Assembly (NCBI RefSeq): GCF_023554255.2
Contig: NZ_JAMJWD020000001.1
Coordinates: 796,755 to 836,754, forward strand
Source: Phyllobacterium sp. 21LDTY02-6
Lineage (GTDB): Bacteria; Pseudomonadota; Alphaproteobacteria; Rhizobiales; Rhizobiaceae
Reading direction: 5' to 3'
Length of the DNA stretch: 40,000 nt
The notes beneath the pieces are model-generated. The model worked only from the letters and a program-made list of their open reading frames with translations, was not told where the DNA came from and did no database searches. The position numbers and the translations under genes were made by a program. Shown here in pieces: positions 3,219 to 27,364 of the stretch (its first letter is position 1; every line of letters starts with the position of its first letter).

Positions 3219-3581
3219 GTGTCGTTCATGTCGAAGATTTCACCGGAGCCGAGAGTAAAACTGTCCAGACTGCGCGATATCGGCTGGAAATGCTGGGATC
3301 CATTTGGTTTGCTGGGACCAGATGCCGGCAAATGGAACGACGAAGCGAACCTTTCCTTTGCCGATGAATATGACGAGCATTTGATCTCGGCGGCGTCGCA
3401 ATTGCGCAGGGGCATCGCGCGGGATCAGGTCATCGACTATCTCGTCGAGATCGAGACTCAATATATGGCTCTGGCAGAACATCCCTCCACGCGCGAGCGC
3501 GCAGCGGCCGTTGTCGATTCCATCCTCGCGGACCCCGAAATCTGGACCTGGCCCGACGAGAAAGGTCGATTTGCGGATTGA
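3219..3581 (+). CDS. Hypothetical protein (120 aa)
   Basis: ORF with ordinary amino-acid composition. No recognisable motif. Confidence 0.55.
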   Translation: MSFMSKISPEPRVKLSRLRDIGWKCWDPFGLLGPDAGKWNDEANLSFADEYDEHLISAASQLRRGIARDQVIDYLVEIETQYMALAEHPSTRERAAAVVDSILADPEIWTWPDEKGRFAD

Positions 3582-5665: not shown

Positions 5666-7297
5666 ATGACCGCACCCTGGTTCAAGGATGCCATATTCTA
5701 CGGGATCGACGTGGAGCGTTTCGCCGATGGCAATGGCGACGGCATCGGCGATTTCGTCGGGCTGACGCAACGGCTCGGCTATCTGCGCGACCTTGGCGTG
5801 ACCTGCATCTGGCTGCTGCCGTTCTTCGGTTCGCCCGACCGCGACAATGGCTATGACGTCAGCGATTTCATGGCGGTCAATCCGAAAGTCGGCACGCGCG
5901 AAGACTTTCTCGCCTTCCTGCACAAGGCCGGCGAGCACGGCATACGCGTCATCATCGATCTCGTGGTCAATCACACATCCGACCAGCATCCCTGGTTCCA
6001 GGCCGCGCGGCGCGACGAGAAATCCCGCTACCGCGATTATTATGTCTGGAGCGGCGATCCGCCGCCCATAGCGCCCGGGACGGTGAGCATATTTCCGGGC
6101 GAGGAGAGCACCGTCTGGACCTATGACGAGGTGGCGCGGGCCTACTACTTCCACAAGTTCTATTCGTTCCAGCCGGAGCTCAACATCGCCAATCCCGAGG
6201 TGCGCGAGGAAATATTGCGCATCGTCGATTATTGGCTTTCCTTCGGCGTCAGCGGTTTCCGGCTCGATGCCGCGCCGCTGATCATCGGCGACAATGGCCT
6301 GCGGCAGGCCAATCCCAAGGACCCGCATGGCGTGCTGCGCGATCTCGCCGCCTATATCGAAAGCCGGCGGCCGGGCGCGCTGCTCCTCGGCGAAGTCAAC
6401 ATGCCGCTGGAGGAGACGAAGAAATATTTCGGCGAGGGCGACCAGCTCGGCCTGCTGTTCAATTTCATGCTCGCCTGCCACGTCTTCGCGGGATTGGCGC
6501 GCGAATCCGCCGAGACGATCTATGAGGCGCTGAGCGGTCTGCCCCAGCCGCCCGAGAATCGCGGCTGGGCGAATTTCCTGCGCAATCTGGACGAGCTGGA
6601 TTTCTCGCAGGTGCCGGCGGACCTGAAGGCCGACGTCTTCGCCAAGTTCGCGCCAAGGCAGGACATGCAGGTCTATGGCCGCGGCGTCCGCAGGCGGCTC
6701 GCACCCATGCTTGGCGGCGATGCGCGCCGCGTCGCCCTGGCATTGAGCATCATATTCTCGCTGCGCGGGCCGCCGCTGATCGTCTATGGCGACGAGATCG
6801 GCCTCGGCGAGGACCTGGAGCAGGAAGGCCGCAATGCGGTGCGCATGCCGATGCAATGGTCGCCGGCGCGCAATGCGGGATTCTCGAGCGCCAATGCGAG
6901 CGCCCTGCCGCTCAAGCCGGTGTCCGAGGGGCCGTTCAGCTATAAGCGCATCAATGTCACCGATCAGGCCGACGACCCGAAATCGCTGCTGAACGAGGTC
7001 AAGCGGCTCATTTCGGTCAGGCGGCGGAGCGAACTCATCCGGTCGGGGCGAGTGGTGCGGCTGACGGCGGACAATCCCGCCATCTTCATCAGCGGCTATG
7101 AGGATGCCGATGCGATGCTGCTGGTGGCGCACAATCTCTCGGCGAAGCCGGTAAAGGCCAGCGTCATGCTGAACCCGCTGCGGCAGCAGGAACTGACGGA
7201 TATCGCCAGCGGACGGAAATATGTGGTGAAGAAGGAGCTGGCGCTGGACCTGCCGCCCCATGGCTATTGCTGGCTGAGCTCGGAGGCGCAGGACTGA
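5666..7297 (+). CDS. GH13 alpha-amylase-family enzyme, trehalose-synthase (TreS)-like
   Basis: 543 aa. DGIGDFVGLTQRLGYLRDLGVTCIWLLPFF, VVNHTSDQHPWF, GFRLDAAP and YGDEIG are GH13 conserved regions and resemble TreS. Confidence 0.85.
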   Translation: MTAPWFKDAIFYGIDVERFADGNGDGIGDFVGLTQRLGYLRDLGVTCIWLLPFFGSPDRDNGYDVSDFMAVNPKVGTREDFLAFLHKAGEHGIRVIIDLVVNHTSDQHPWFQAARRDEKSRYRDYYVWSGDPPPIAPGTVSIFPGEESTVWTYDEVARAYYFHKFYSFQPELNIANPEVREEILRIVDYWLSFGVSGFRLDAAPLIIGDNGLRQANPKDPHGVLRDLAAYIESRRPGALLLGEVNMPLEETKKYFGEGDQLGLLFNFMLACHVFAGLARESAETIYEALSGLPQPPENRGWANFLRNLDELDFSQVPADLKADVFAKFAPRQDMQVYGRGVRRRLAPMLGGDARRVALALSIIFSLRGPPLIVYGDEIGLGEDLEQEGRNAVRMPMQWSPARNAGFSSANASALPLKPVSEGPFSYKRINVTDQADDPKSLLNEVKRLISVRRRSELIRSGRVVRLTADNPAIFISGYEDADAMLLVAHNLSAKPVKASVMLNPLRQQELTDIASGRKYVVKKELALDLPPHGYCWLSSEAQD

Positions 7298-8330: not shown

Positions 8331-8405
8331 TGGCTCCCCGGGCCGGATTCGAACCAGCGACCAACCGGTTAACAGCCGGTTGCTCTACCGCTGAGCTACC
8401 GGGGA
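8331..8405 (-). tRNA. tRNA-Asn (GUU)
   Basis: The reverse complement folds as a cloverleaf. Acceptor TCCCCGG/CCGGGGA, anticodon arm CCGG-CTGTTAA-CCGG, T arm GGTTCGAATCC, encoded CCA. 75 nt. Confidence 0.9.
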
Positions 8406-8552: not shown

Positions 8553-8888
8553 ATGACGAATTGGAAGCGAGTGACGAAAAGCAGTAAAACCGGCGGAAAT
8601 GATGCCGGCGAACAACCCCATCACGCGGCAGGCGCCAAGAAACGCCGGCATATACGGCTGTTTGGCCGCCACCTGCCGGTGCCGCAATCGGTGGCAATGC
8701 GTCGCACGCTGGGCGGATTGCTCGTCGCCGGCGGCACGCTGGGCTTCCTGCCGGTCCTCGGCTTCTGGATGGTGCCGCTCGGCCTGATCGTGCTGTCTCA
8801 GGATTCGGCCATCGTCCGCCGCAAGCGCCGCCAGCTCGAAGTGAAGATCGGCCGCAAATGGAAAGGCAGCCGCCCGGCCGATAAATAG
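8553..8888 (+). CDS. Small membrane protein (two TM helices), start uncertain
   Basis: The C-terminal 63 aa (from M at 8697) are hydrophobic: LLVAGGTLGFLPVLGFWMVPLGLIVLS. The overlapping minus-strand ORF looks like a GC artefact. Confidence 0.45.
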   Translation: MTNWKRVTKSSKTGGNDAGEQPHHAAGAKKRRHIRLFGRHLPVPQSVAMRRTLGGLLVAGGTLGFLPVLGFWMVPLGLIVLSQDSAIVRRKRRQLEVKIGRKWKGSRPADK

Positions 8889-9062: not shown

Positions 9063-9136
9063 GGCCTCGTGGCGGAGTGGTTACGCAGAGGACTGCAAAT
9101 CCTTGCACCCCGGTTCGATTCCGGGCGAGGCCTCCA
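9063..9136 (+). tRNA. tRNA-Cys (GCA)
   Basis: Acceptor GGCCTCG/CGAGGCC, anticodon loop CTGCAAA, T arm GGTTCGATTCC, encoded CCA. 74 nt. Confidence 0.9.
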
Positions 9137-9158: not shown

Positions 9159-10343
9159 CTATCTGATTTTGCTTTGATTTTTCTCAGGTGTGGCAGTCTG
9201 GGACGCCATCGCTTCATCAGGGTGTGGCAGTTCGTTCCCGATTTCACCCCAATCGATCCTCAAAACCGCCTGTCGCGCGAGCTTTGATCTGCGGGCATTG
9301 CGCGTGTAGATTTTCGACGTCTTTCCGTCCGACCAGCCGAACATTCCCTCAAGCATGTGATCGGTCGCTTCATTCTCGGCCATGTTCGTCGCAAGGCCCT
9401 TTCGCACGCTGTGTGCGGTGAGATGGGGAAATCCGGCCTGAGTGAACCAGTCTGACACACGATTGCCCAGACCTTTGACCGAAAATGGCTTGCCGAACTC
9501 GGTAAGTAGATAAGCCATGCCCTTCACTGGGTGCATCGCCAGGACGGCCTCAAGGATAGGGTGAATCAGGATCGTCAGCGTCACCGGATGCCTGTTACGG
9601 TTCTTGAACACTCGAAATTCGAACGAATCGCCCCGGCGATGCTGAGGGCCGAGCTTGGCCAGGTCCGAAACGCGAACTCCGGTGTACATGAGAATGGAGA
9701 GGGCAAGGACGGCCTTCGATGAGGTGCCGTGATGCTGGATATATTGCCGAATCTCTTCGTCGCGAGCTGTGGCGTGTCCGTCCGTCTTCTGTCTGAACGA
9801 TTGAACGAGCTTTGCAGTGTTGACCTTGACCAACGGCGCCGGCTTGGTTTTTATCCCGGCTTCAAATATCTGCCTCAACACCTTCAGCCGCTCATCGGCC
9901 GCGAATGGCGTTTGTTTCTTCCTATCGCGCAGCACAGCGATGTTGTCGGCATCGAGTGCCGATATCGGCATGGCGGCGAAAATTCGTTTGTCTGTCTCGC
10001 TGATCGGCTCGAGGAGCATTGCGTCGATGATTGAACGGCGCTTTGATTGGGTTGTAGGGTCAAGGCTGCTGAAAGCATCGCTCTTGAAATACGCGGTGCA
10101 GAGGTAATGAAATGTACCGGGGCGGGCTATCTGAGGCACAACCTTGTCATCAGACACTACATCCTCGGGTAGGGCGATCCCATTGCGAATCCGCCAGTAT
10201 TCTTTCGTGAACTCCTCGCTATCAGGGTTATCTGGAAGGCGCCCCAGGCGCTTCCCATTCAAGCGGAAGTAATACCGCGCTTTGCCATGCCGGTTCGGGT
10301 TGTACTCGATGTATGGCAATTCAACAGCGGCCAAATCGTTCAA
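9159..10343 (-). CDS. int: Tyrosine recombinase / phage integrase
   Basis: 394 aa. TGVRVSDL (Arg), HSVRKGLAT (HxxR), GWSD, KIYTRNA (catalytic Tyr). Adjacent to a tRNA. Confidence 0.92.
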   Translation of the reverse strand: MNDLAAVELPYIEYNPNRHGKARYYFRLNGKRLGRLPDNPDSEEFTKEYWRIRNGIALPEDVVSDDKVVPQIARPGTFHYLCTAYFKSDAFSSLDPTTQSKRRSIIDAMLLEPISETDKRIFAAMPISALDADNIAVLRDRKKQTPFAADERLKVLRQIFEAGIKTKPAPLVKVNTAKLVQSFRQKTDGHATARDEEIRQYIQHHGTSSKAVLALSILMYTGVRVSDLAKLGPQHRRGDSFEFRVFKNRNRHPVTLTILIHPILEAVLAMHPVKGMAYLLTEFGKPFSVKGLGNRVSDWFTQAGFPHLTAHSVRKGLATNMAENEATDHMLEGMFGWSDGKTSKIYTRNARRSKLARQAVLRIDWGEIGNELPHPDEAMASQTATPEKNQSKIR

Positions 10344-10585
10344 GCCGATGCCCTCCAGCCTGAGACATCGACCTCCTCCTCACCATCCACCGGCCATTCT
10401 GCCATCGCAGCTTCAAGTTCGGCTATCCGCCAAAACTTCCGCGTGTGCCATCTGCGCGGGCGAGGGAGCATACCTTCCTTGACCATTTCATCAACAGTGT
10501 TTGGGGCAACCCCGATCGCAATGGCTACTTCAGCACGGCTGAGGCCGAGCCGAGGGATGTTTCTGAGGCTTTCAATCTTAGCCAT
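10340..10585 (-). CDS. xis: Excisionase / AlpA-type HTH DNA-binding protein
   Basis: Start MAKIESLRNIPRLGLSRAEVAIAIGVAPNTVDEMVKEG (HTH). ATGA overlap with int. Confidence 0.7.
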   Translation of the reverse strand: MAKIESLRNIPRLGLSRAEVAIAIGVAPNTVDEMVKEGMLPRPRRWHTRKFWRIAELEAAMAEWPVDGEEEVDVSGWRASA

Positions 10586-15673: not shown

Positions 15674-15972
15674 ATCAACGGCAAGTGGGTGATTTCGTAA
15701 TCGTCGCGCCGTTTGAAAAGCGGGCAGCGGCATCGGCGCAGAAAGATATGTTTACGGCTTACCTGAAGAGGTGTTTCCCCAAGCTCAACTTTGCCATCGC
15801 GCCCTTCGCGCCGGTCGATAGTGCCGGCGGATTCTCAGTGATCCCAATCATGGGAGCAGTGGGGGGCGACGGAGAATGCTCCTTGTGCGAGCCTCCGAGC
15901 CGATGGTTGATCGCCGAAATTATCAAGGCTTGTGAGCGGTTCGATCTTCCTGAAGTTCGCCTTGCGTCCTAG
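15670..15972 (+). CDS. Hypothetical protein (100 aa), coupled to the Zn-ribbon gene
   Basis: ATGA overlap with 15449..15673. Its stop overlaps the repressor stop (convergent). Confidence 0.55.
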   Translation: MNQRQVGDFVIVAPFEKRAAASAQKDMFTAYLKRCFPKLNFAIAPFAPVDSAGGFSVIPIMGAVGGDGECSLCEPPSRWLIAEIIKACERFDLPEVRLAS

Positions 15973-16661
15973 AATTCAAAGTCATTCACAACACGGCGAA
16001 CAAGTCCGATTATTTCCACCACAGTGCCTTCATCGGCATGCATGTCCCGTTTGACAACGATCGGCTTGTGTTTTGGATTGTTTGAGCGTGGATGGAATTC
16101 AGTTCGATCAGCGTAGATCTCAACCTGTTTGATCGACCACTCACGCGTGTGGCCGCCGTCCCGAGTTCTCTCAACTACCACGACCATCCCATCACGGAGC
16201 GTGGCGTCATGAGCGACGTCCTCATAGGCAACGCAAACAGCTCTGTCGCCAGGCAGGATAGGGCGAGGGCGAAGAGCGTTCATCGAGTCACCCTCTACGT
16301 CGAATGCCACCTGGCGGGCGCCAGGGAACCTTTCATCTGGGGGCAGGGACAAGAAGACTGGCTCTGATTGATCCATGTCGTCGACTTCCCTGAAGGAGCC
16401 CGCCTCGGTTTTTCCAATCACCGGGATAGGCACTAGGCGCGATGTTGCCGGCCTAATTTCGCTGAAAGGATCCGGGAGTTCGAGGTATTCGGCGATCTTC
16501 GGAGGCTCCGAAACCTTCAAGCTTCGCTTTCCTTGCAGGAGTTGGGTTATCTGCGGATGAGCGATACCGAGGTGCTTTGCCAAACCGGATTGCGTTTTTC
16601 CCGGTTGAGCCAGCCCCTGCTTGATCCACTCCAAATACTTTTCCGTTACCTCATCAGCCAT
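15969..16661 (-). CDS. CI-like repressor: XRE-type HTH + S24 (LexA-like) peptidase domain
   Basis: Internal start MADEVTEKYLEWIK at 16661. HTH QSGLAKHLGIAHPQITQLLQGKR. The C-terminal part has the GDSM Ser motif and a downstream Lys (IKQ). Confidence 0.9.
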   Translation of the reverse strand: MADEVTEKYLEWIKQGLAQPGKTQSGLAKHLGIAHPQITQLLQGKRSLKVSEPPKIAEYLELPDPFSEIRPATSRLVPIPVIGKTEAGSFREVDDMDQSEPVFLSLPPDERFPGARQVAFDVEGDSMNALRPRPILPGDRAVCVAYEDVAHDATLRDGMVVVVERTRDGGHTREWSIKQVEIYADRTEFHPRSNNPKHKPIVVKRDMHADEGTVVEIIGLVRRVVNDFEF

Positions 16662-16667
16662 TGTTTG

Positions 16668-16746
16668 ATTTTCGCACAACACATTTTCCAAATCCTTTAG
16701 TATTTTCGTACATTCACTATTGTCAGGTCTGTATGAATATCGTACA
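16668..16746. promoter_or_regulatory. Operator-like sites OR (three 11-mers, 34-bp phasing)
   Basis: On the + strand: ATTTTCGCACA 16668-16678, ATTTTCGTACA 16702-16712, AATATCGTACA 16736-16746. These are reverse complements of TGTGCGAAAAT, TGTACGAAAAT and TGTACGATATT. Confidence 0.5.
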
Positions 16747-16748
16747 TT
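16720..16748 (+). promoter_or_regulatory. PR-like early-right promoter candidate (possibly leaderless cro-like mRNA)
   Basis: TTGTCA (16720-16725), 17 nt, then TACATT (16743-16748). The ATG at 16755 is only 6 nt downstream and has no SD sequence. Confidence 0.45.
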
Positions 16749-16754
16749 GTCGGC

Positions 16755-16991
16755 ATGAGATGCGAACCCGCCCACACGATTATCAAGAAGTTCAATGGTT
16801 TGAAGCCAATTGCCCAGGCTGCAAATGTGACTGTCCATTCGGTCATGCGTTGGCGCTCTCCCAGGGAGCGCGGCGGTACTGGCGGCATCATTCCACATTG
16901 GCACATGCAAGCTCTCCTCGAAGCGGCGAGGGACAGAGGCATTGACCTCCAGCCATCGGATTTTCTTCCACAGCAGGATGAAGCAGCATGA
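16755..16991 (+). CDS. Cro/YdaS-like HTH regulator
   Basis: 78 aa. LKPIAQAANVTVHSVMRW (HTH) ... IPHWHMQALLEAA. Divergent from the repressor gene. Confidence 0.65.
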   Translation: MRCEPAHTIIKKFNGLKPIAQAANVTVHSVMRWRSPRERGGTGGIIPHWHMQALLEAARDRGIDLQPSDFLPQQDEAA

Positions 16992-20407: not shown

Positions 20408-21006
20408 GCGAAAGGCCATTCATGCAGCTGTACGTTTCCGATTTCATCGGCGACACGCTGCACCTCAGCACGGAACAGATAGGAGCATACATGTTGCTCC
20501 TTATGGCCATGTGGAACGCCGACGGCAGCCTGCCTGACGAAGACGCGAAACTCGCTCGCGTCGTCCGCATGTCGGTCAAAAAATGGCGCTCCATCAGCGG
20601 CGATCTCTTGCCGTTCTTTGTGAAGGCGGACGGCAAAATCAGCCACAATCGTCTGACGAAAGAGCTTCAAAAAAGCGCGAGTAAAAGTCAATCGAGAGCT
20701 GCCGCCGGTGCCAAGGGTGGCGAAGCTAAAGCATTGAAAGATAAAGAACGGCACGTGGCAAATGCCAGCGTTTTGCCACAGCATCTTCCAGAAACCAGAG
20801 ACCATATAGAAAAACCTTCCGGTTTTTCAGGGCGCGCAGGCGCGCGAAAACCAAATGGATTTGTCCCAATTCGAAAATCGACAGACGCAGCACTTTCACT
20901 GATCCAGGAGCTCCAACAGCATGAACAATTCCGAGAAGATCGAAGCAACCAAGGCATTGACCAAGCTGTTCGGCAGTTTCCCGCAATCTCCCATGTCCGA
21001 CCCTGA
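20404..21006 (+). CDS. DUF1376 (YdaU-like) phage replication-associated protein
   Basis: MQLYVSDFIGDTLHLSTEQIGAYMLLLMAMWNADGSLPDEDAKLARV is the DUF1376 signature as I recall it. Confidence 0.75.
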   Translation: MSERPFMQLYVSDFIGDTLHLSTEQIGAYMLLLMAMWNADGSLPDEDAKLARVVRMSVKKWRSISGDLLPFFVKADGKISHNRLTKELQKSASKSQSRAAAGAKGGEAKALKDKERHVANASVLPQHLPETRDHIEKPSGFSGRAGARKPNGFVPIRKSTDAALSLIQELQQHEQFREDRSNQGIDQAVRQFPAISHVRP

Positions 21007-21223
21007 TCTGCAGCTTCGTGCCTATCTCGATGCCGTCGAGAGCTTCGAGTGCGTTGACGTTCTGGCAGCTGTCGAGCGTTTCCGGCAGGGCGAGGTGAAA
21101 GAGGTCAACAAGGCCTACTGCCCATCGACGGCTCAGCTCTGTGATGAGGTGCGGTACCGCAAGCAGATGCGGGAGATCATGGCTCGCGCCGGCGTAAAGC
21201 CTGGGACGCTTTTGGTGCAGTGA
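20921..21223 (+). CDS. Hypothetical phage protein (100 aa)
   Basis: AGGAG RBS at 20906-20910. Overlaps the DUF1376 ORF tail by 86 nt. Confidence 0.5.
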   Translation: MNNSEKIEATKALTKLFGSFPQSPMSDPDLQLRAYLDAVESFECVDVLAAVERFRQGEVKEVNKAYCPSTAQLCDEVRYRKQMREIMARAGVKPGTLLVQ

Positions 21224-21525
21224 TGGATACCGAAATTCAAGAACGAGCGAAACGGATCATAGCAGCGAGCCCAGCGTTGGCTCGTGAGATCGTTCGCCAG
21301 TTCAACCCGGCGCCGAAGAAGCTGACCGATCGCCAGCAACAGGCGCTGGACGCAGTGAAGGCATTCCAGACCGAGCATGGCCAGTCGCCGACGTTCAAGG
21401 AAGCGGCGGAGCTTCTCGGATGCTCGTCCACCGCGGCGTTCTACATGCTCCACCGCCTCGAAGAACGGGGACACATTGAGATCGAGCCGCATCAGCGCCG
21501 CTCGATCACCCTCAAAGCATCTTAA
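21220..21525 (+). CDS. Second LexA-N-like winged-helix DNA-binding protein
   Basis: 101 aa. LTDRQQQALDAVKAFQTEHGQSPTFKEAAELLGCSSTAAFYMLHRLEERGHIEIEPHQRRSITL parallels the LexA N-terminal domain. Confidence 0.6.
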   Translation: MMDTEIQERAKRIIAASPALAREIVRQFNPAPKKLTDRQQQALDAVKAFQTEHGQSPTFKEAAELLGCSSTAAFYMLHRLEERGHIEIEPHQRRSITLKAS

Positions 21526-21546
21526 TCGCATCATGAAGGACAAGCC

Positions 21547-22131
21547 ATGAAGGCGGGCATAGACAAAGACAAGCACTGGTACGTGGTGCGTACAACCGTG
21601 AAGGGTGAAGTGAAGGCTTTCGAGAGCATCCGTAAGGCCGGTTACGATGTCTATTTCCCGCGTCGGCGGGTTGAGGTGCAGCACAGGCGGACTAAGACGT
21701 ATGTTGTCAAGGAACAGCCGCTCATGCCTCGGTATCTCTTCGTGGGGCAGCCGAGGGTTAATCCTGACTTCTACCGGTTGCGCAACTGCGATTGTGTCGA
21801 GGGAGTGCTAGGAGTGGACGGCCGCCCAATCCGCGTTTCAGAAAAGAGCGTCGAGGAAATCTACATCGCCGAGATCGAAATGGATTTCGACGATACTCGC
21901 GCAGCACGTATTCATCGCAAGGAGGAACTGGCTTCCGCAAAGGAAAACGCTGCTAGGCAATTCCCATCAGGGCAGAGCGTTTTCGTAGTCGATCCTGCGA
22001 ATCCGTTCTCGAAACATGCCGGTGTGGTCCAGGAAGTCACTAGGGCGGGAAAGGTCAGAGCGCTGATCCAGCTCTTCGGCAGAATGACTCCGGTCGAGTT
22101 CGAAGCGAAACAGCTTTCGTCTGCGGCCTGA
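21547..22131 (+). CDS. NusG/RfaH-like transcription antiterminator (NGN + KOW)
   Basis: 194 aa. NGN-like region WYVVRTTVKGEVKAFESIRKAGYDVYFP and KOW-like region GQSVFVVDPANPFSKHAGVVQEV. Confidence 0.8.
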   Translation: MKAGIDKDKHWYVVRTTVKGEVKAFESIRKAGYDVYFPRRRVEVQHRRTKTYVVKEQPLMPRYLFVGQPRVNPDFYRLRNCDCVEGVLGVDGRPIRVSEKSVEEIYIAEIEMDFDDTRAARIHRKEELASAKENAARQFPSGQSVFVVDPANPFSKHAGVVQEVTRAGKVRALIQLFGRMTPVEFEAKQLSSAA

Positions 22132-22176
22132 CATCAAGTACTTTTGAGTATCGTTCGTCTCAAGGAGTGAGTCGCT

Positions 22177-23184
22177 TTGCAGTTTGAGTATACGGAGCCA
22201 CAAAGTGAACTTGAACGCATGTTTGGCGGCCATTATTCGATTAACTTGTTTGGTCCAATCAAGCTAGGCGATGACATCAGGTTCCAAGAGTTTCTAGCGC
22301 AATGCGCGCCACCGCCCAGAACGCCGGTGTACATCAATTCCACTGGCGGGGACGTTGAGACTGCGATCAAAATTGGCCAGCTCATACGCGGTGAGTGGTT
22401 TTCTACCCATATTGGAAGCTTCGTTCTTGATCACGACCGGCATCATGAACACTATGTTCCGCGGAAGCATATACCCGGTCGTTGTTTAAGCGCGGCTACG
22501 TTGATCTACCTTGGTGGACGGTTGAGATATTTTGACAACGACGCCAAGTTCGGAGTGCATCAGTTCTCGTTCAAAGACCCTGCCCCAGATCATGTTGGAC
22601 GTTCGCAAGTACTCTCCGCAAAGATTGCGCGCTTCATAGAGGACATGGGCATCACATCGGAGTTTCTGAATATCTCTACCGCTGCTCCGGGCGATAAGAT
22701 TAAGCTTCTGGAAGCGGATGAACTTGAGCGAATCGGGGTGGTTACTGGAGGTGAGACTGACGTCACGTGGAGCATGCAAGCGAGAAACAATACCCTCTAT
22801 ATTCGTGGCGAACGGGACTCATTGTATGGTCACCATAAGGTTATGCTTGGCCACACCCGGTCTGGAGGCTTCTACTTTCACGCAGTTATTGAAGCGCAAG
22901 GCCGCGAAGATGAACTGATCAGCTTTCCCGTAGTCGAGATCAATGTTGAAGCTAGTTCGAACAACATAGATATTTCTGAGCGCGCATTTCGCGCCGCGGT
23001 AGGGATATACGTTAATGTCTTTGCCAAACTCGAGCACAATGAAGCTGCAGTGATAGCTAATTCGATAGGTTTCGGAATTCAAATACGTGCGGCGCATGAT
23101 GCGGGTATGTTTTTGGGGATAGCACCCATGAAGACTGACAACGGAAAAGACCAGCTTCTAAGCTTCTACAACAATCTTCGGTGA
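22177..23184 (+). CDS. Orphan ClpP/crotonase-fold (COG3904/SppA-like) serine-protease-like protein with unknown C-terminal domain
   Basis: 335 aa. TTG start 9 nt after AAGGAG. VYINSTGGDVETAIKIGQLIR ... CLSAATLIYLGGRLRY ... FGVHQF aligns by eye with the ClpP INSPGG / Ser / His motifs. AT-richer than its flanks. Confidence 0.65.
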   Translation: MQFEYTEPQSELERMFGGHYSINLFGPIKLGDDIRFQEFLAQCAPPPRTPVYINSTGGDVETAIKIGQLIRGEWFSTHIGSFVLDHDRHHEHYVPRKHIPGRCLSAATLIYLGGRLRYFDNDAKFGVHQFSFKDPAPDHVGRSQVLSAKIARFIEDMGITSEFLNISTAAPGDKIKLLEADELERIGVVTGGETDVTWSMQARNNTLYIRGERDSLYGHHKVMLGHTRSGGFYFHAVIEAQGREDELISFPVVEINVEASSNNIDISERAFRAAVGIYVNVFAKLEHNEAAVIANSIGFGIQIRAAHDAGMFLGIAPMKTDNGKDQLLSFYNNLR

Positions 23185-23227
23185 ACTATTTATGAAAATA
23201 TACCGTTTCATCGGACTTAGATCAGGC

Positions 23228-23312
23228 TATACGCGCATGTAGGATGATTTGATGTTCAGCGCGGACCTTTGGACAGGGGACACTCGCCGGTCAAACCCAA
23301 CTTAAGCAGCAG
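23228..23312 (+). repeat. 85-bp direct repeat, copy R1
   Basis: TATACGCGCATG...AAGCAGCAG. 79/85 identical to 23976-24060 by hand alignment. Confidence 0.85.
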
Positions 23313-23523
23313 ACGAAGTGGCTTCAACAAAGGACAATACTGCTTGGCAGTTCCCGGCGCGTAGAGCGTTTTTGTAGTGATCCGCCAAATCCGTTCTAAG
23401 AACACACAGGCGTGGTTCAGGAAGTAACAAAAGCGGGAAAGGTCAGGGTGACCTCTCATGGAATTGTTTGGCCGGATGACACCAGTTGAATTCAGCGTTA
23501 AACTGTTAGTTTCCGCGGTATAG
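23275..23523 (+). pseudogene. Decayed duplicate of the 3' ~80 codons of the NusG-like gene
   Basis: Nucleotide similarity to 21890-22131. Conceptual translation retains DTR..AS.K.N.A.QFP..SVFVV..LFGRMTPVEF but has several stops and a frameshift. Confidence 0.75.
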
Positions 23524-23532
23524 GATCAGCGA

Positions 23533-23949
23533 TTGGCAGAAATATATCAATCAGCGGCATCACTTAATGTCTCGAGCGACGAACTTGAGATCGCACACGT
23601 TAGTCATCTTCTCGAAGCTGAGCCTGACTTAGCGTACGAGAAGGGGAAAGAACGTGTCTTGCCGAATGGAAATAGAATAATTGCGCACACTGGCCTTTGG
23701 TCCAGAAGCGCAGAATACAGAATACCCGGTGACCTCGACGGACAGATCGCTGAACTATTCACACCGCTTAGCCAGGATCTTGATCACTGGCTCGACGTGT
23801 CATCTCGGTACAGAATACGCATATTCTGCGGACTCTGGTTAAAGGGCAAAAACGAGGGCATAGACCTTGACCCCCAAACACTGATCGAAGTGGCACTGCG
23901 AAACGCCTCTATCGAATTTGACATCTACAACGGCGTTCAACGAAAATAA
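23533..23949 (+). CDS. DUF4279-like protein (138 aa)
   Basis: TTG start after AGGA. TGLWSRS...YRIRIFCGLWLKGKNEGIDLDPQTLIEVALRNASIEFDIY resembles the DUF4279 pattern from memory. Confidence 0.55.
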   Translation: MAEIYQSAASLNVSSDELEIAHVSHLLEAEPDLAYEKGKERVLPNGNRIIAHTGLWSRSAEYRIPGDLDGQIAELFTPLSQDLDHWLDVSSRYRIRIFCGLWLKGKNEGIDLDPQTLIEVALRNASIEFDIYNGVQRK

Positions 23950-23975
23950 TCCTTCACATAGGAAGAAAATCAGTT

Positions 23976-24060
23976 TATACGCGCATGCAGGATGATTTGA
24001 TGTTCAGCGCGGACCTTTGGACAGGGAATACTCGCCGGTCAAACCCAGCCCAAGCAGCAG
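23976..24060 (+). repeat. 85-bp direct repeat, copy R2
   Basis: See R1. Together they flank the DUF4279-like cassette. Confidence 0.85.
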
Positions 24061-24100
24061 CTTGAGGCAGATGGAGGTTTATTCCTCAAATTCAGTTTCA

Positions 24101-24177
24101 TGCGGAGTGGAGAAGTAGTCATCTCGCCGGTCTCATAAACCGGAGATCGTCGGTGCAAATCCGACCTGCCGCAACCA
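24101..24177 (+). tRNA. Non-canonical tRNA-like element with CAU anticodon (pseudo-tRNA or phage tRNA)
   Basis: D arm GAGA-AGTAGTCA-TCTC, anticodon arm CCGGT-CTCATAA-ACCGG, T arm GTCGG-TGCAAAT-CCGAC, 3' ACCA. However, the acceptor has a mismatch plus an extra nucleotide, position 55 is G, and G19 is absent. Confidence 0.4.
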
Positions 24178-24179
24178 CT

Positions 24180-24353
24180 TCATTTGAACTTGCAAAGCTT
24201 TGCCTGGCGAGCTTGCTCTTTCTCAGCCTCCGCCAACGTTTTGAATGGTCCGACGATCTCAGGTTGATCCGATCGTCCTTCAATTCTGAGATAGAACAAC
24301 CCGAGACTTGGCGTGACGTACATCGAAAGCTTTTTGGTCTTCTTTTTGGACAT
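24180..24353 (-). CDS. Possible small basic protein (57 aa)
   Basis: Internal start MSKKKTKKLSMYVTP preceded by AGGTG. ORF only. Confidence 0.35.
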   Translation of the reverse strand: MSKKKTKKLSMYVTPSLGLFYLRIEGRSDQPEIVGPFKTLAEAEKEQARQAKLCKFK

Positions 24354-24521
24354 TGAGCACCTGTGCAAAATGACCAAATAGCAGTTTCGCGGCTAACAAA
24401 TCAACCATGCGAGATCATAATGCGCTGCGTCCGCTTCGTAGGCTTCCGCGCTGACGAATATATGCCAGCCGTAAAGGCGTTCTTCATATTCGGCTCCTGT
24501 ATGCGTTCGTATCGATGAATT

Positions 24522-24546
24522 GGAACGATCAACAGGTTTGCGAGTT
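24522..24546 (+). promoter_or_regulatory. EcfG/general-stress-like promoter (GGAAC-N16-AGTT) upstream of the YciF-like gene
   Basis: GGAAC at 24522-24526 and AGTT at 24543-24546, 33 nt before the ATG at 24579. Confidence 0.4.
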
Positions 24547-24578
24547 GGTTAGGTACTCAATCAAAAGGGAGTACCATC

Positions 24579-25049
24579 ATGAAGACACTCGCGGAGCTGT
24601 TCGAACATACGCTCAAAGATGTCTATTATGCCGAGAACGCAATCGTAAAGGCGCTGCCGAAAGTGTCAGCCGCTGTAAAAAGTGCCGAACTAAAGAAAGC
24701 ACTGGATCACCACCTTGAAGAAACAAAAGGTCAAATTAAAATTCTAGACAAGGTGTTCAAATCGATCAACGTCAAACCCGCCGGTGAAAAATGCGATGCA
24801 ACCGACGGTCTTATTAAGGAGACCGATGGCGTTGTGGCCGAAGCGACGGGCGTCGCACTTGACGCGGGCGCGCTTGCCGCTTGTCAGGCTGTAGAACACT
24901 ACGAGATTGCGCGTTACGGGTCACTTCGTGAGTGGGCAAAGGTGCTCGGAAACGAGGAAGCCCATGTTCTACTCAGTGAAATTCTCGACCAGGAAAAAGC
25001 TGCCAACAACAAGCTGACCAATCTGGCCGTCACTACCATCAACAAATAG
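24579..25049 (+). CDS. YciE/YciF-family (DUF892) ferritin-like stress protein
   Basis: 156 aa. LKDVYYAENAIVKALPK...LDHHLEETKGQIKILDKVF...QAVEHYEIARYGSL...LDQEKAANNKL is typical of DUF892. Confidence 0.85.
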   Translation: MKTLAELFEHTLKDVYYAENAIVKALPKVSAAVKSAELKKALDHHLEETKGQIKILDKVFKSINVKPAGEKCDATDGLIKETDGVVAEATGVALDAGALAACQAVEHYEIARYGSLREWAKVLGNEEAHVLLSEILDQEKAANNKLTNLAVTTINK

Positions 25050-25131
25050 TCTTCCAGATTTGCAGTCATCCCGCACAATAGGTGCGCCTGCGGCAGTCTA
25101 CGGGCTGCCGTTTTCATTTGGAGCAATCACC

Positions 25132-25254
25132 ATGAACCGCAGATCAATCCTGGCACTCCTCGGATTTGCTCCCATAGCCGGCGCTGCTGCCGCAATGCCT
25201 CGCGCTGCTGATCCGGTAAAGCTGGCAAGCACCGGGGGGACGTGGAAGGTCTAA
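25132..25254 (+). CDS. Possible 40-aa peptide with twin-arginine-like signal
   Basis: Internal start MNRRSILALLGFAPIAGAAAA after GGAG. It may be a gene fragment. Confidence 0.3.
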   Translation: MNRRSILALLGFAPIAGAAAAMPRAADPVKLASTGGTWKV

Positions 25255-25276
25255 GGAAAGTCGTCTAGAATCCCGA

Positions 25277-25801
25277 TTATAAAGGATTAGCGTTCGGTGG
25301 GACCAACACAAACTTGTCTGTGTTCGCTTTCATTTCAGCCCACACATGATCGGGAATATAGTGGGGCCAAGACAATTGCTGGTGTTGACCACCAGGTCGA
25401 GAGATTAAACCCTTACTAAGCAATCCAACCAATCGACCCTCGCCGTAGGGATACGGAAAAGACTGAGTATTTCGTTTGAGAAGGTACGCCATAATTGCGT
25501 GTTCCTGGTCAGGTAAGTCGTAGAGTAGTTTTATGTGCCTCGCGATATGTGCACGAGTGGCAAACCAGCTTCTGACCGATGCAATACAATCGATTACTAC
25601 AAGGATCACTTTCACAAAGCAGATGCCGACAGCGAACAAGAAAATAATCAAAGCGGCCGCAAGAAAAGCCGGTCCAATCAAATCTGCATAGGGCAAATTG
25701 TAATAATTTGCGCCCAGGGTACCCCCGCTACCGATGAGCGCCACCAATGCAATTGGCCAGGACACGCTAAGCGCTTCGATAAAGTCTTTTAGGCTTGGCA
25801 C
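25277..25801 (-). CDS. Superinfection-exclusion SieB-like membrane protein
   Basis: 174 aa. GTG start after GGGGAG. Two N-terminal TM helices, then LLYDLPDQEHAIMAYLLKRNTQSF...LLSKGLISR, which resembles the SieB (PF14163) pattern from memory. AT-rich. Confidence 0.55.
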   Translation of the reverse strand: MPSLKDFIEALSVSWPIALVALIGSGGTLGANYYNLPYADLIGPAFLAAALIIFLFAVGICFVKVILVVIDCIASVRSWFATRAHIARHIKLLYDLPDQEHAIMAYLLKRNTQSFPYPYGEGRLVGLLSKGLISRPGGQHQQLSWPHYIPDHVWAEMKANTDKFVLVPPNANPL

Positions 25802-25866
25802 AATAGCTCCCCATTTTTAAATTTGATCCAACAGCTTCGCTCTCGGGAAAGCAAGAGGTGTGCCGC

Positions 25867-26496
25867 ATGTTCATGTCTCGCCCACTGCCACCAGAAGCGA
25901 TCACTGCCATTGACGCAACGAGCACCTTTGCGCCAGCTCCCCAATTGGTAGAGTGGGCCAGGGCGACTTTCATCAACGAAGACGCCAAGCTGTTTAACCC
26001 GGATCACTTCCATCTCAACAGCGCCTCGCTTGGCATTCTCTGGACCAACGTCAGTAACACCCGCAAGGGGCGCAGCATCATAGGCCAGTGCGAAGAGGGC
26101 AAGCCATCTGGCATGATGGGCAAATGGGGTAAGGCCCGAGCAGAAGAGCAGATCGTCGGATGGTTCGGCACGATACCCGATTTCATCATCACGATAGATG
26201 CTCTCTACGCCGTGGAATGTTCGGATGCTGAATTTTGCGCGCTGATCGAGCATGAGCTTTACCACGCGGCACAAGAGCGAGATCCTTTCGGTGCTCCCAA
26301 GTTCAGCAAGAGTACTGGCATGCCGATATTCACTCTACGGGGACATGACGTGGAAGAGTTCGTCGGCGTGGTCAGGCGATATGGAGCTGACGCCACCCAA
26401 ATTCGGGCGCTCGTCGATGCAGCCAATGCAGGACCAGAGATCGCCAACGTTCGTATCGCAAATGCATGCGGCACCTGTCAGCTTCGTGCTGCTTGA
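25867..26496 (+). CDS. Putative phage metallopeptidase (HExxH)
   Basis: ATG at 25867, 8 nt after AAGAGG (the track ORF uses GTG at 25858). HELYH motif within EFCALIEHELYHAAQERD. Confidence 0.65.
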   Translation: MFMSRPLPPEAITAIDATSTFAPAPQLVEWARATFINEDAKLFNPDHFHLNSASLGILWTNVSNTRKGRSIIGQCEEGKPSGMMGKWGKARAEEQIVGWFGTIPDFIITIDALYAVECSDAEFCALIEHELYHAAQERDPFGAPKFSKSTGMPIFTLRGHDVEEFVGVVRRYGADATQIRALVDAANAGPEIANVRIANACGTCQLRAA

Positions 26497-26899: not shown

Positions 26900-27364
26900 A
26901 TGGCTAAAGCGAAACTCTCAGATGAGGTGAAAACCTACATCGTGCAGGCCGTGGCATGTTTTGACAGTCCATCTGTAGTCGCTGCTGCGGTCAAGAAGGA
27001 GATGGGCATCGAGGTCAGCCGTCAGTTGGTGGAAAGCCACGATCCGAACAAGAAGGCCGCTTCAGGATTGGCTCCGAAGTGGAGGGCGCTGTTCGAGGAG
27101 ACGCGCAAGACCTTTCTCGAAGACACTGCCACGATAGCCATTTCTCATCGGGCAGTTCGGCTCCGAGCATTGCAGCGCATGGCCGACAAGGCTGAAACCC
27201 AAGGAAATATGGTTCTTGCCGCGTCCCTGATGAAGCAGGCGGCCGAGGAAATTGGCAACGCCTATACGAACCGGCGCGAACTCACGGGGAAGGATGGAAA
27301 GGATTTGCCGGTGCCAGTATCGCCGGTGACGATATTCCAGTTGCCCGACAATGGCAGGAGCTGA
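26900..27364 (+). CDS. Terminase small subunit (DUF2280-like)
   Basis: MAKAKLSDEVKTYIVQAVACFDSPSVVAAAVKKEMG matches my recollection of DUF2280 TerS. Immediately upstream of TerL. Confidence 0.7.
   Translation: MAKAKLSDEVKTYIVQAVACFDSPSVVAAAVKKEMGIEVSRQLVESHDPNKKAASGLAPKWRALFEETRKTFLEDTATIAISHRAVRLRALQRMADKAETQGNMVLAASLMKQAAEEIGNAYTNRRELTGKDGKDLPVPVSPVTIFQLPDNGRS

Follow-up and report, generated by a model that had tools for sequence, protein, structure and literature searches.

The window analysed here, a 40,000-nt stretch of the genome of Phyllobacterium sp. 21LDTY02-6, contains a prophage in which the gene for a NusG-like transcription antiterminator (21547-22131, plus strand) is followed by two accessory genes, a set of repeats and, further downstream, the late genes. 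It is likely that this arrangement goes back to one illegitimate, unequal crossover between two related phages, by which their cargo was stacked, and that the conserved non-coding element involved, termed R hereafter, is a late promoter and leader for the NusG-like protein. The original prediction had read the region as nested, decayed copies of the 3' end of the antiterminator gene, left behind by repeated acquisition of cassettes. Such a series was not recovered: a single junction, at which a truncated copy of R is fused to an orphan NusG 3' end, explains all of the repeats.

Two direct repeats and a single junction

Comparison of positions 21000-25000 with the window by BLASTN returned two non-trivial repeat pairs, both of them direct. 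The first pairs 21922-22058, in the NusG-like gene, with 23312-23446 (77% identity over 137 nt, E 9e-23), and gapped local alignment extends it to 21922-22125 against 23312-23515, with 150/210 positions identical and a score of 168 versus 21 +/- 3 in shuffles. That is, the 3' end of the gene does recur downstream as a decayed copy, as had been predicted. This orphan pseudogene copy (23312-23523, plus strand) corresponds to codons 126-194 and is spread over three reading frames with one in-frame stop, its conceptual translation being DEVASTKDNTAWQFP / SVFVV / DPPNPF*EHTGVVQEVTKAGKV / ELFGRMTPVEF. Its start had been placed at 23275, however, whereas the NusG homology sets in only at 23312, which is exactly the end of the upstream R copy and from which the sequence corresponds to NusG codon 126. 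The "DTR" at 23279-23287 lies within the conserved R core, and its likeness to the DDTR of NusG is coincidental.

The second pair consists of two copies of R, R1 (23194-23312) and R2 (23942-24060), with 101/119 identical positions (85%, E 4e-33); the hand-counted identity of 79/85 between 23228-23312 and 23976-24060 proved exact on recount. R had been taken for the first 85 bp of the NusG 3' copy, but it is a conserved leader element and is not NusG-derived. Likewise, the self-alignment did recover the NusG repeat and the likeness of R1 to R2, but no similarity could be detected between the NusG-like gene and the R2 region, in which a second nested remnant (23976-24060) had been proposed. The further expectation that each interval between copies holds one AT-richer gene was borne out: the COG3904-family gene at 22177-23184 (49.4% G+C) and the DUF4279 gene at 23533-23949 (48.4%) contrast with the NusG-like gene (55.6%) and the neighbouring phage genes (56-57%). 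Chance similarity of the repeats was ruled out by the E-values and shuffles, switching by inversion or as a shufflon by their direct orientation, and a silent-cassette or antigenic-variation role of the orphan 3' end by its frameshifts and stop codon.

R is approximately 160 nt long and consists of a promoter-like part followed by a structured leader of approximately 115 nt, the near-invariant core of which reads GGGAAYACUCGCCGG as RNA. R2 is complete (23942-24100, plus strand, as are all its parts) and abuts a tRNA-Met gene. It comprises a -35-like TTCACA (23953-23958), a -10-like TATACG (23976-23981), the helices P1 (23996-24001/24038-24043) and P2 (24014-24016/24023-24025), the core GGGAATACTCGCCGGTC (24024-24040) and the P3 hairpin (24048-24068). 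Identity amounts to 92-93% with the R of L017 and L055, two relatives without cargo, and to 84-86% with that of L001, L002, L006 and L011; an R profile (nhmmer) matches R2 over positions 8-120 (E 4e-19). Judged by its sequence, R2 is an intact native copy and forms a native conserved unit with the tRNA-Met. The tRNA-like element that had been said to end the series is indeed a true tRNA gene, but it is part of that native unit.

R1 (23194-23312, plus strand) is a truncated, decaying copy in which the promoter-like part, P1, P2 and the core are still present; it breaks off at the first base of the P3 3' strand. The profile matches it over positions 15-78 only (E 6e-12), and unique substitutions (GGGGAC for GGGAAY, CAACTT for CAGCCC) are found at positions that are invariant in 10 relatives. 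R1 is thus a shortened R on which constraint has been relaxed, and it is joined head-on to the orphan NusG 3' end, with at most approximately 3 nt shared at the joint (R1|psi-NusG3'). In addition, the -35-like hexamer of R is flanked on both sides by the arms of a short inverted repeat (window 23950-23966 and 23202-23218; R of L001, L003 and L006), which read TCCT..AGGA in R2, CCG..CGG in R1 and AAACCT..AGGTTT in L006. The compensating changes in its arms may hint at an operator or a small hairpin.

When the orphan and intact NusG copies were compared, mismatches amounted to 15/69, 7/69 and 33/68 at codon positions 1, 2 and 3, respectively (chi-square p 1.3e-6). This third-position bias suggests that most of the divergence accrued while both copies were working genes, and supports derivation of the orphan 3' end from a functional gene of another phage. 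Among the NusG genes of the sampled loci, the orphan copy gave short matches only, the best being to the window's own gene (71-77%).

R is a conserved, structured element of related phages

Related Phyllobacterium prophages were fetched with the NusG-like protein as query, and R was found between the NusG-like gene and tRNA-Met in L001-L006 and L011. The 17-nt core GGGAAYACTCGCCGGKC (also written GGGAAUACUCGCCGG) has 79 exact matches in IMG/VR, 7 of which are chance matches, while approximately 70 share the whole architecture, namely, in order, a sigma-70-like promoter, GUGAUUUG, P1, P3 and a conserved AUAUUGCC-AAAUUC tail, with P1 closing a region that holds the P2 hairpin and the single-stranded core. 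In 44 of the 56 loci left after de-duplication, a distance of 46-110 nt separates the NusG-like stop codon from the beginning of the core; the genes for the metallopeptidase, DUF2280 protein and large terminase (TerL) lie downstream of R on the same strand. The core remains fixed even where the NusG-like proteins are down to 25-30% identity, and the same holds when R is searched for via its 5' part; that search gave about 20 further copies with at most one core change each, including compensated P1 variants (GCGGUU/GACCGC). A tRNA-Met follows R in L001-L004, L011 and L041, as well as in the isolated Rhizobium phage RHph_TM3_3_3. The latter has the layout of the window family: a gene annotated as "NusG-like transcription antiterminator" (1-687), an unannotated R (700-755), tRNA-Met (1347-1422) and DUF2280 (at 3514). 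The canonical order is NusG-like gene, R, (often) tRNA-Met, metallopeptidase, small terminase and large terminase.

In an alignment seeded on the conserved core, RNAalifold found both P1 and P2. P1 is paired in 167 of 185 cells, compared with 120 +/- 6 when partners were shuffled, and the covariation score of 0.278 (versus 0.089 +/- 0.017) was reached in 0 of 500 shuffles, slid controls being low as well. The P3 hairpin is predicted in 62/62 sequences; its stem differs from lineage to lineage, and z averages -1.55. R1 folded alone showed no significant stability. R therefore has a secondary structure backed by covariation.

For R, Rfam gave no match in the window (E <= 5) or in 12 relatives (E <= 1); the only Rfam matches at these loci were tRNA and, in three of them, the small RNA ar35 downstream of R. 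The ar35 matches (RF02346, 97-101 bits; L012 1426-1563, L037 780-917, L088 857-993 on the minus strand) lie approximately 100 nt downstream of the R core. This known alphaproteobacterial small RNA, absent from the window, would seem to be part of the late-leader region in that IMG/VR lineage. The possibility that R is part of the NusG gene was rejected, since R does not align to the gene and is conserved as a separate element, as was a small protein gene, since the P2 loop varies in length by non-multiples of three and the frame is lost in L003 and L004. Literature searches returned no description of the R element or of phage NusG paralogues with late leaders.

A variable accessory hotspot ahead of the late genes

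The flanks of the region are conserved in Phyllobacterium, Rhizobium and IMG/VR loci, with the NusG-like gene on the left and R/tRNA-Met, metallopeptidase, DUF2280 and TerL on the right. What lies between them is not: the distance from the NusG stop to the R core ranges from 0 to 4.6 kb, with 12 of the 56 loci holding different genes in 0.6-4.6 kb, and between the R core and the metallopeptidase gene relatives have anything from 135 to 3250 nt. When the prophages L001-L006 were anchored on the NusG-like and metallopeptidase/terminase genes, none was found to carry the window's cargo, and the pair of cargo genes occurs in no relative. Between the NusG stop and R, L001 encodes an AAA ATPase and a partner that match PADLOC PDC-M31 A/B, a candidate defence pair; L002 a 252-aa protein without known function; L004 two DUF1254/DUF1214 proteins; L005 an SNase-domain protein; and L006 a DndB/DpdB-like protein, a Dam methylase and a 163-aa open reading frame (ORF) without family. 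L003 has the minimal layout, with no ORF taken for cargo in the approximately 230 bp between NusG and R, followed by tRNA-Met. The spacing between the NusG-like and metallopeptidase genes, given for the three relatives in which the right anchor lay within reach, is 2.8 kb in L003, 4.4 kb in L004 and 7.4 kb in L006, versus 3.7 kb in the window.

The comparison thus confirmed the prediction of a variable accessory locus before the late genes: the joint between NusG and R and the stretch after R form an accessory (moron) hotspot. Such a hotspot and its scars are ordinary phage biology. The suggestion of a possible defence locus fits the PDC-M31 pair of L001, but none of the four window cargo proteins (COG3904, DUF4279, DUF892 and SieB-like) has a PADLOC match, and NCBIfam gave nothing on the window's cargo. 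A defence role for the cargo of this prophage is therefore unsupported; an anti-phage defence island was rejected on the same ground, only the relatives L001 and L006 having matches. An integron-type cassette array was rejected as well, as there is no integrase at the locus, the repeats are a gene fragment and a leader, and the junctions differ between loci.

It had also been proposed that each acquisition brings a fresh NusG 3' end. In nine other cargo-bearing loci, however, only chance-level alignments were obtained in the search for a duplicated 3' end. This indicates that a fresh 3' end is not the usual route of cargo gain, and that the scar in the window records one kind of event, stacking.

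Origin of the arrangement

In the favoured reading, one parent would have carried NusG - COG3904 - R and the other NusG' - DUF4279 - R - tRNA-Met. If the R of the first parent broke in its P3 loop and the NusG' of the second at codon 126, the exchange would have left one intact NusG-like gene on the left, one intact R with tRNA-Met on the right and a dead joint in the middle, both dead halves of which would have decayed afterwards. The order NusG3'-cargo-R5' | NusG3'-cargo-R has the topology of an unequal crossover, with R5'|NusG3' as the sole new junction. Such a product would survive because one intact antiterminator gene is kept on the left and one intact R and tRNA on the right. Two parents, rather than duplication in situ, are suggested by the unrelated cargo genes, by the third-position bias of the NusG mismatches and by the existence of parent-like layouts (L091; L093-L096).

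A number of observations weigh against this interpretation. Neither exact parent was found among the loci: L091 shares only 71% identity with the window, and the subtype of its R, which is 75% identical to R1, is a different one. R1 is in fact closest to R2 (85%), so that for the R part an origin within one phage lineage is possible. As to the promoter and leader, the -10-like TATACG of R2 fails a strict sigma-70 consensus scan, which picks TTGACA-18-GAAAAT at 23918-23947 instead, and there is no U-tract terminator directly 3' of R. Moreover, when R2 was folded by itself its stability was unremarkable (z +0.69), and P1 is missing from the minimum-energy structure.

The duplicated NusG end and the closeness of R1 to R2 could also be accounted for in other ways. 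Serial recombination within the antiterminator gene, with nested decayed 3' ends of which R1 and R2 would be pieces, can draw on the one real orphan 3' end, which comes from a different functional gene, and on the frequency of orphan NusG 3' fragments in Phyllobacterium (L007, L010 and L011 with two each in the latter two, L093-L096, L097). Nevertheless, R is conserved behind intact NusG-like genes at over 50 loci and covaries as RNA, 23942-24100 bears no similarity to NusG, a single junction explains the two repeat pairs, a duplicated 3' end is absent from nine other loci with cargo, and some of the fragments (L093, beside tRNA-Asp in decayed remnants) are explained by deletion of the left arm; we therefore regard it as very unlikely. 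A tandem duplication in situ, from the NusG 3' end to the R 5' part, would give exactly the observed topology (X3'-cargo-R5' | X3'-cargo-R) and would agree with R1 being closest to R2 and sharing its subtype-specific states. It would, however, require an extra event replacing one cargo, the two cargo genes being unrelated, and the neutral decay it implies would not be expected to leave mismatches at 33/68 third versus 7/69 second positions, which makes this origin improbable.

Two further explanations concern what R does. R1 might be a working second promoter and leader, kept to drive DUF4279 as a moron with its own late-promoter copy: most of the core survives in it, along with P1, P2 and the promoter-like hexamers, it has DUF4279 downstream in the same orientation, and second R copies before cargo recur in L011, L049 and L093-L096. 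The loss of the P3 3' strand, the unique substitutions at positions invariant in all relatives, core included, and the 210-nt pseudogene between R1 and DUF4279 argue against such a function, and we consider it rather unlikely. The very high conservation of the core, the cargo abutting the left edge of R exactly and the HNH homing endonuclease genes that adjoin R in L018 and L028 could alternatively mean that R acts as DNA, as an operator, packaging site or cassette attachment site, at which a site-specific enzyme inserts cargo. Yet helices approximately 40 nt apart covary and P3 stems are lineage-specific, as suits a transcript and not DNA bound by a protein; the locus has neither an integrase nor a recombinase gene; the junctions differ (P3 loop in the window, core in L097, profile positions 33-85 in L049); and R lies 1-3 kb from the terminase genes. 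There seems little chance that R is such a site.

Recombination scars in other loci

Several of the loci show rearrangements at the same place. In L091, a P. lublinensis prophage colinear with window 21002-23299, NusG is followed by COG3904 and then by a complete R. The tRNA-Met of the window's type is split in this prophage, the first 16 nt (7174-7189) following R and the last 34 nt (8589-8622) lying 1.4 kb away, with minus-strand genes for a YflT-domain protein and a protein of unknown function in between; an intact tRNA-Met of another type is present at 10456-10530. In L011 the order is partial NusG - cargo - psi-NusG3' - R - tRNA - cargo - R - psi-tRNA, and second R copies are present both there and in L093-L096, Phyllobacterium prophage remnants in which DUF4279 is again followed by R. 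L049 carries two Rs of different lineages (64-148 and 863-951) on either side of an EthD-domain gene, one with P3 stem CCGCC/GGCGG and the other with GGGAGG/CCUCCC; the first R lacks the 3' part and the second the 5' part, with junctions at profile positions 33-85. As far as can be read from these two copies, L049 is direct evidence of stacking between lineages.

The DUF4279 module was also found in L097, a metagenome contig of 1002 nt (ERZ27253205 k141_730844), which is 97.8% identical to window 23474-23928, i.e. the end of the orphan copy and DUF4279. Within 440-680 it lacks window 23929-24028, a 100-nt deletion between TAC triplets that fuses the 3' end of DUF4279 to the R core, and it has a second, different R|NusG3' joint, with a NusG fragment (residues ~148-192) where the window has tRNA-Met. 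The deletion together with the new joint suggests that this module keeps rearranging.

Orphan fragments of the NusG C-terminal (KOW) part were seen in L007 (7902-8282), L010 (8001-8102 and 11135-11301) and L093 (3582-3728), without a 5' half nearby and in some cases in prophage remnants beside tRNA genes; the three loci yielded no orphan fragment of a 5' end. Some of these 3' ends (L093, L010, L007) may be remains of decayed prophages. Genes for homing-type HNH_3 endonucleases, one with an AP2 domain, occur in L018 (445-975 and 1015-1887) and L028 (2805-3398, minus strand); in L018/L083 and L028 a complete R is followed by the HNH_3 gene and then by a partial 3' copy of R, and in RHph_TM3_3_3 the NusG-like gene is closely preceded by an HNH gene. 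Breaks made by such endonucleases could be among the causes of recombination at the R site.

The cargo genes, the antiterminator and their prophage

The first cargo gene (22177-23184, plus strand) encodes a COG3904-family protein of 335 aa with an N-terminal ClpP-fold domain, as had been predicted, and a C-terminal beta-rich domain. When the protein was modelled with AlphaFold2 (mean predicted local distance difference test, pLDDT, 90), a Foldseek search of the PDB matched the model to ClpP at E 3e-7 with a target TM-score of 0.55-0.65 over ~180-210 residues. S105 and H128 are invariant in 27 homologues, and the protein may be an active serine peptidase. No match was obtained in Pfam, NCBIfam or PADLOC, and a sequence search of the PDB gave nothing. 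The family is widespread in Rhizobiales (52-69% identity); hundreds of homologues exist in Rhizobiales and Rhodobacterales, yet it has no Pfam or NCBIfam model. The second gene (23533-23949, plus strand), correctly assigned to DUF4279 (Pfam, E 5e-14), encodes 138 aa, starts 9 nt after the orphan stop codon and has its own stop within the left edge of R2. The only relatives of its product are 96% and 59% identical, the latter in Phyllobacterium prophage remnants. No close relatives of the two cargo genes were found in IMG/VR, and a search of a phage collection with the region gave tRNA matches only, those to the NusG-like protein being distant. Consensus scans for promoters and terminators of the cargo found weak sites only. 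The window cargo is co-oriented with the phage genes, and that of L001, L002, L004 and L006 lies on the opposite strand.

The NusG-like protein, the left anchor of the hotspot, has 194 aa and matches the Pfam NusG NGN domain (PF02357, E 8e-16) and PHROG 6386, "transcription antiterminator" (E 3e-25). Its alignment to TIGR00922 covers residues 11-191, so that the NGN domain is accompanied by a KOW-type C-terminal part. It falls below the NCBIfam cut-offs for NusG, RfaH (44 bits versus 144), UpxY (37 versus 100) and LoaP (19 versus 125), and orthologues of 64-85% identity occupy the same place in Phyllobacterium prophages. These assignments point to a separate phage lineage (PHROG 6386), within the NusG family but in no curated subfamily.

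The prophage is integrated at a tRNA-Cys gene (9063-9136; ARAGORN), which together with the host tRNA-Asn (8331-8405) marks its left boundary; G+C content, ~64% on the host side, falls there to 53-60% in the prophage. After the tRNA-Cys comes a gene for a tyrosine integrase (9159-10343, minus strand); it is the only one in the prophage, with none at the cargo locus. Pfam recognised no phage single-strand-annealing recombinase, which might have accounted for relaxed recombination, among the ten prophage ORFs between the integrase gene and 19804. A CI-like repressor gene with helix-turn-helix (HTH) and S24 domains (15969-16910, minus strand) precedes a rightward early operon with GapR-like, DUF1376 (primosomal-type) and LexA-type HTH genes, the last gene of which is that of the NusG-like protein. 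On the other side of the hotspot, the late genes start with the metallopeptidase gene (25858-26496, plus strand), the right anchor, followed by the DUF2280 putative small terminase gene (26900-27364, plus strand), both identified by Pfam and syntenic in relatives, and by TerL (from 27351) and portal (from 28762), labelled from synteny.

Between R/tRNA-Met and the late genes lies a second variable stretch (24178-25857). The tRNA-Met (CAT; 24101-24177, plus strand) was identified by ARAGORN and Rfam (RF00005, 51.2 bits) and is followed by a DUF892 gene (24579-25049, plus strand; Pfam, E 5e-51), on the 3' side of which a terminator scan found a terminator-like hairpin of 9 bp with a T-rich tail (25090-25111, plus strand), and by a weak SieB-like (superinfection exclusion) ORF encoding a membrane protein (25277-25801, minus strand; SieB E 4e-5, below cut-off). 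An inverted repeat between the tRNA body and 24250-24275 was dismissed, its 11-nt exact seed being at about chance level in 4 kb. G+C content is 48-50% across 22177-25857, compared with 56-57% for the phage genes on either side and 64% for the host flank.

Possible function of R and comparison with known systems

R is located on the same strand as the late operon, beside the NusG-like gene, and 0.1-3.3 kb separate it from the late genes downstream. Where it lies, how well it is conserved and how it folds suggest that R is probably a late promoter and leader, and the target of the NusG-like protein encoded next to it. From this arrangement we infer that the NusG-like protein, acting at R, would let RNA polymerase pass terminators, such as the hairpin at 25090-25111 between R2 and the late genes, into the late genes, in a manner analogous to Q/pR'/qut of lambda. 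More tentatively, and with somewhat less than even confidence, R can be proposed as a new class of phage leader RNA, which might also be released as a small RNA upon RNase P cleavage at the adjoining tRNA-Met. It would be a specific loading or antitermination site for a phage-encoded NusG paralogue, an RNA counterpart of the ops element of RfaH, and would serve as late-gene switch in a large family of temperate phages of Rhizobiales, with the block of antiterminator gene, R and tRNA providing the shared homology that would let phages trade or stack accessory genes.

In lambdoid phages, including Stx phages, pR', qut, tRNA genes and morons such as stxAB lie between the Q gene and the late and lysis genes. 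Morons are said to have been described by Juhala et al. in 2000, and the Stx phage 933W reportedly by Plunkett et al. in 1999. The locus studied here resembles that region in having an antiterminator gene, a late promoter/leader, a tRNA and variable accessory genes of atypical composition ahead of structural genes, and in that the cargo varies between otherwise syntenic relatives. It differs in that the antiterminator is a NusG paralogue (NGN + KOW) and not Q, the structured leader is another one, much of the cargo lies upstream of the leader (NusG stop to R), and partial copies of the anchors remain as scars.

Specialised NusG paralogues are known to work with recruitment elements, such as the ops DNA element for RfaH and a leader RNA hairpin for LoaP, UpxY being a further paralogue. 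The likeness lies in a NusG-family gene beside a conserved 5'-leader element of the long operon it presumably controls, and in a single-stranded core that is almost invariant. On the other hand, the window protein lies below the NCBIfam cut-offs of these families, the R core is unlike ops (GGCGGTAGCGTG), and R is phage-borne and abuts a tRNA.

Hotspots of anti-phage systems in P2/P4 prophages and satellites have reportedly been described by Rousset et al. in 2022. Fixed flanks and interchangeable, AT-richer, often minus-strand cargo are common to both, and L001, with its PADLOC candidate system, and L006, with its DndB/DpdB-like protein and Dam methylase, fit the comparison. However, the window cargo matches no known defence family and other relatives carry stress-type genes (YflT, HSP20, DUF892) or unknown genes, so that defence is not supported as the theme of this hotspot.

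Within Rhizobiales, another phage-derived element, the Bartonella gene transfer agent, has a strong sigma-70 promoter, a long leader and a terminator before its capsid genes (P_bgtA-K), all under the control of the processive antiterminator BrrG, which is encoded elsewhere (bioRxiv 10.1101/2024.11.20.624540). The circuit is analogous only: BrrG, which binds DNA at the promoter, is Q21-like and does not belong to the NusG paralogues, and the element is unrelated to R in sequence.

The locus provides a clean, datable example of two accessory modules stacked without loss of function, and its kinds of scar, namely partial NusG ends, partial R copies and split tRNAs, recur in relatives. For annotation, the repeat is a conserved, unannotated regulatory element that marks the boundary between early and late genes in many Rhizobiales prophages. 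The R leader is unannotated in the phage records examined and could represent new biology, more novel than the hotspot itself. To our knowledge, recruitment of NusG paralogues has been worked out for few members of the family only, and a phage NusG paralogue with a structured leader is a testable candidate for such recruitment.

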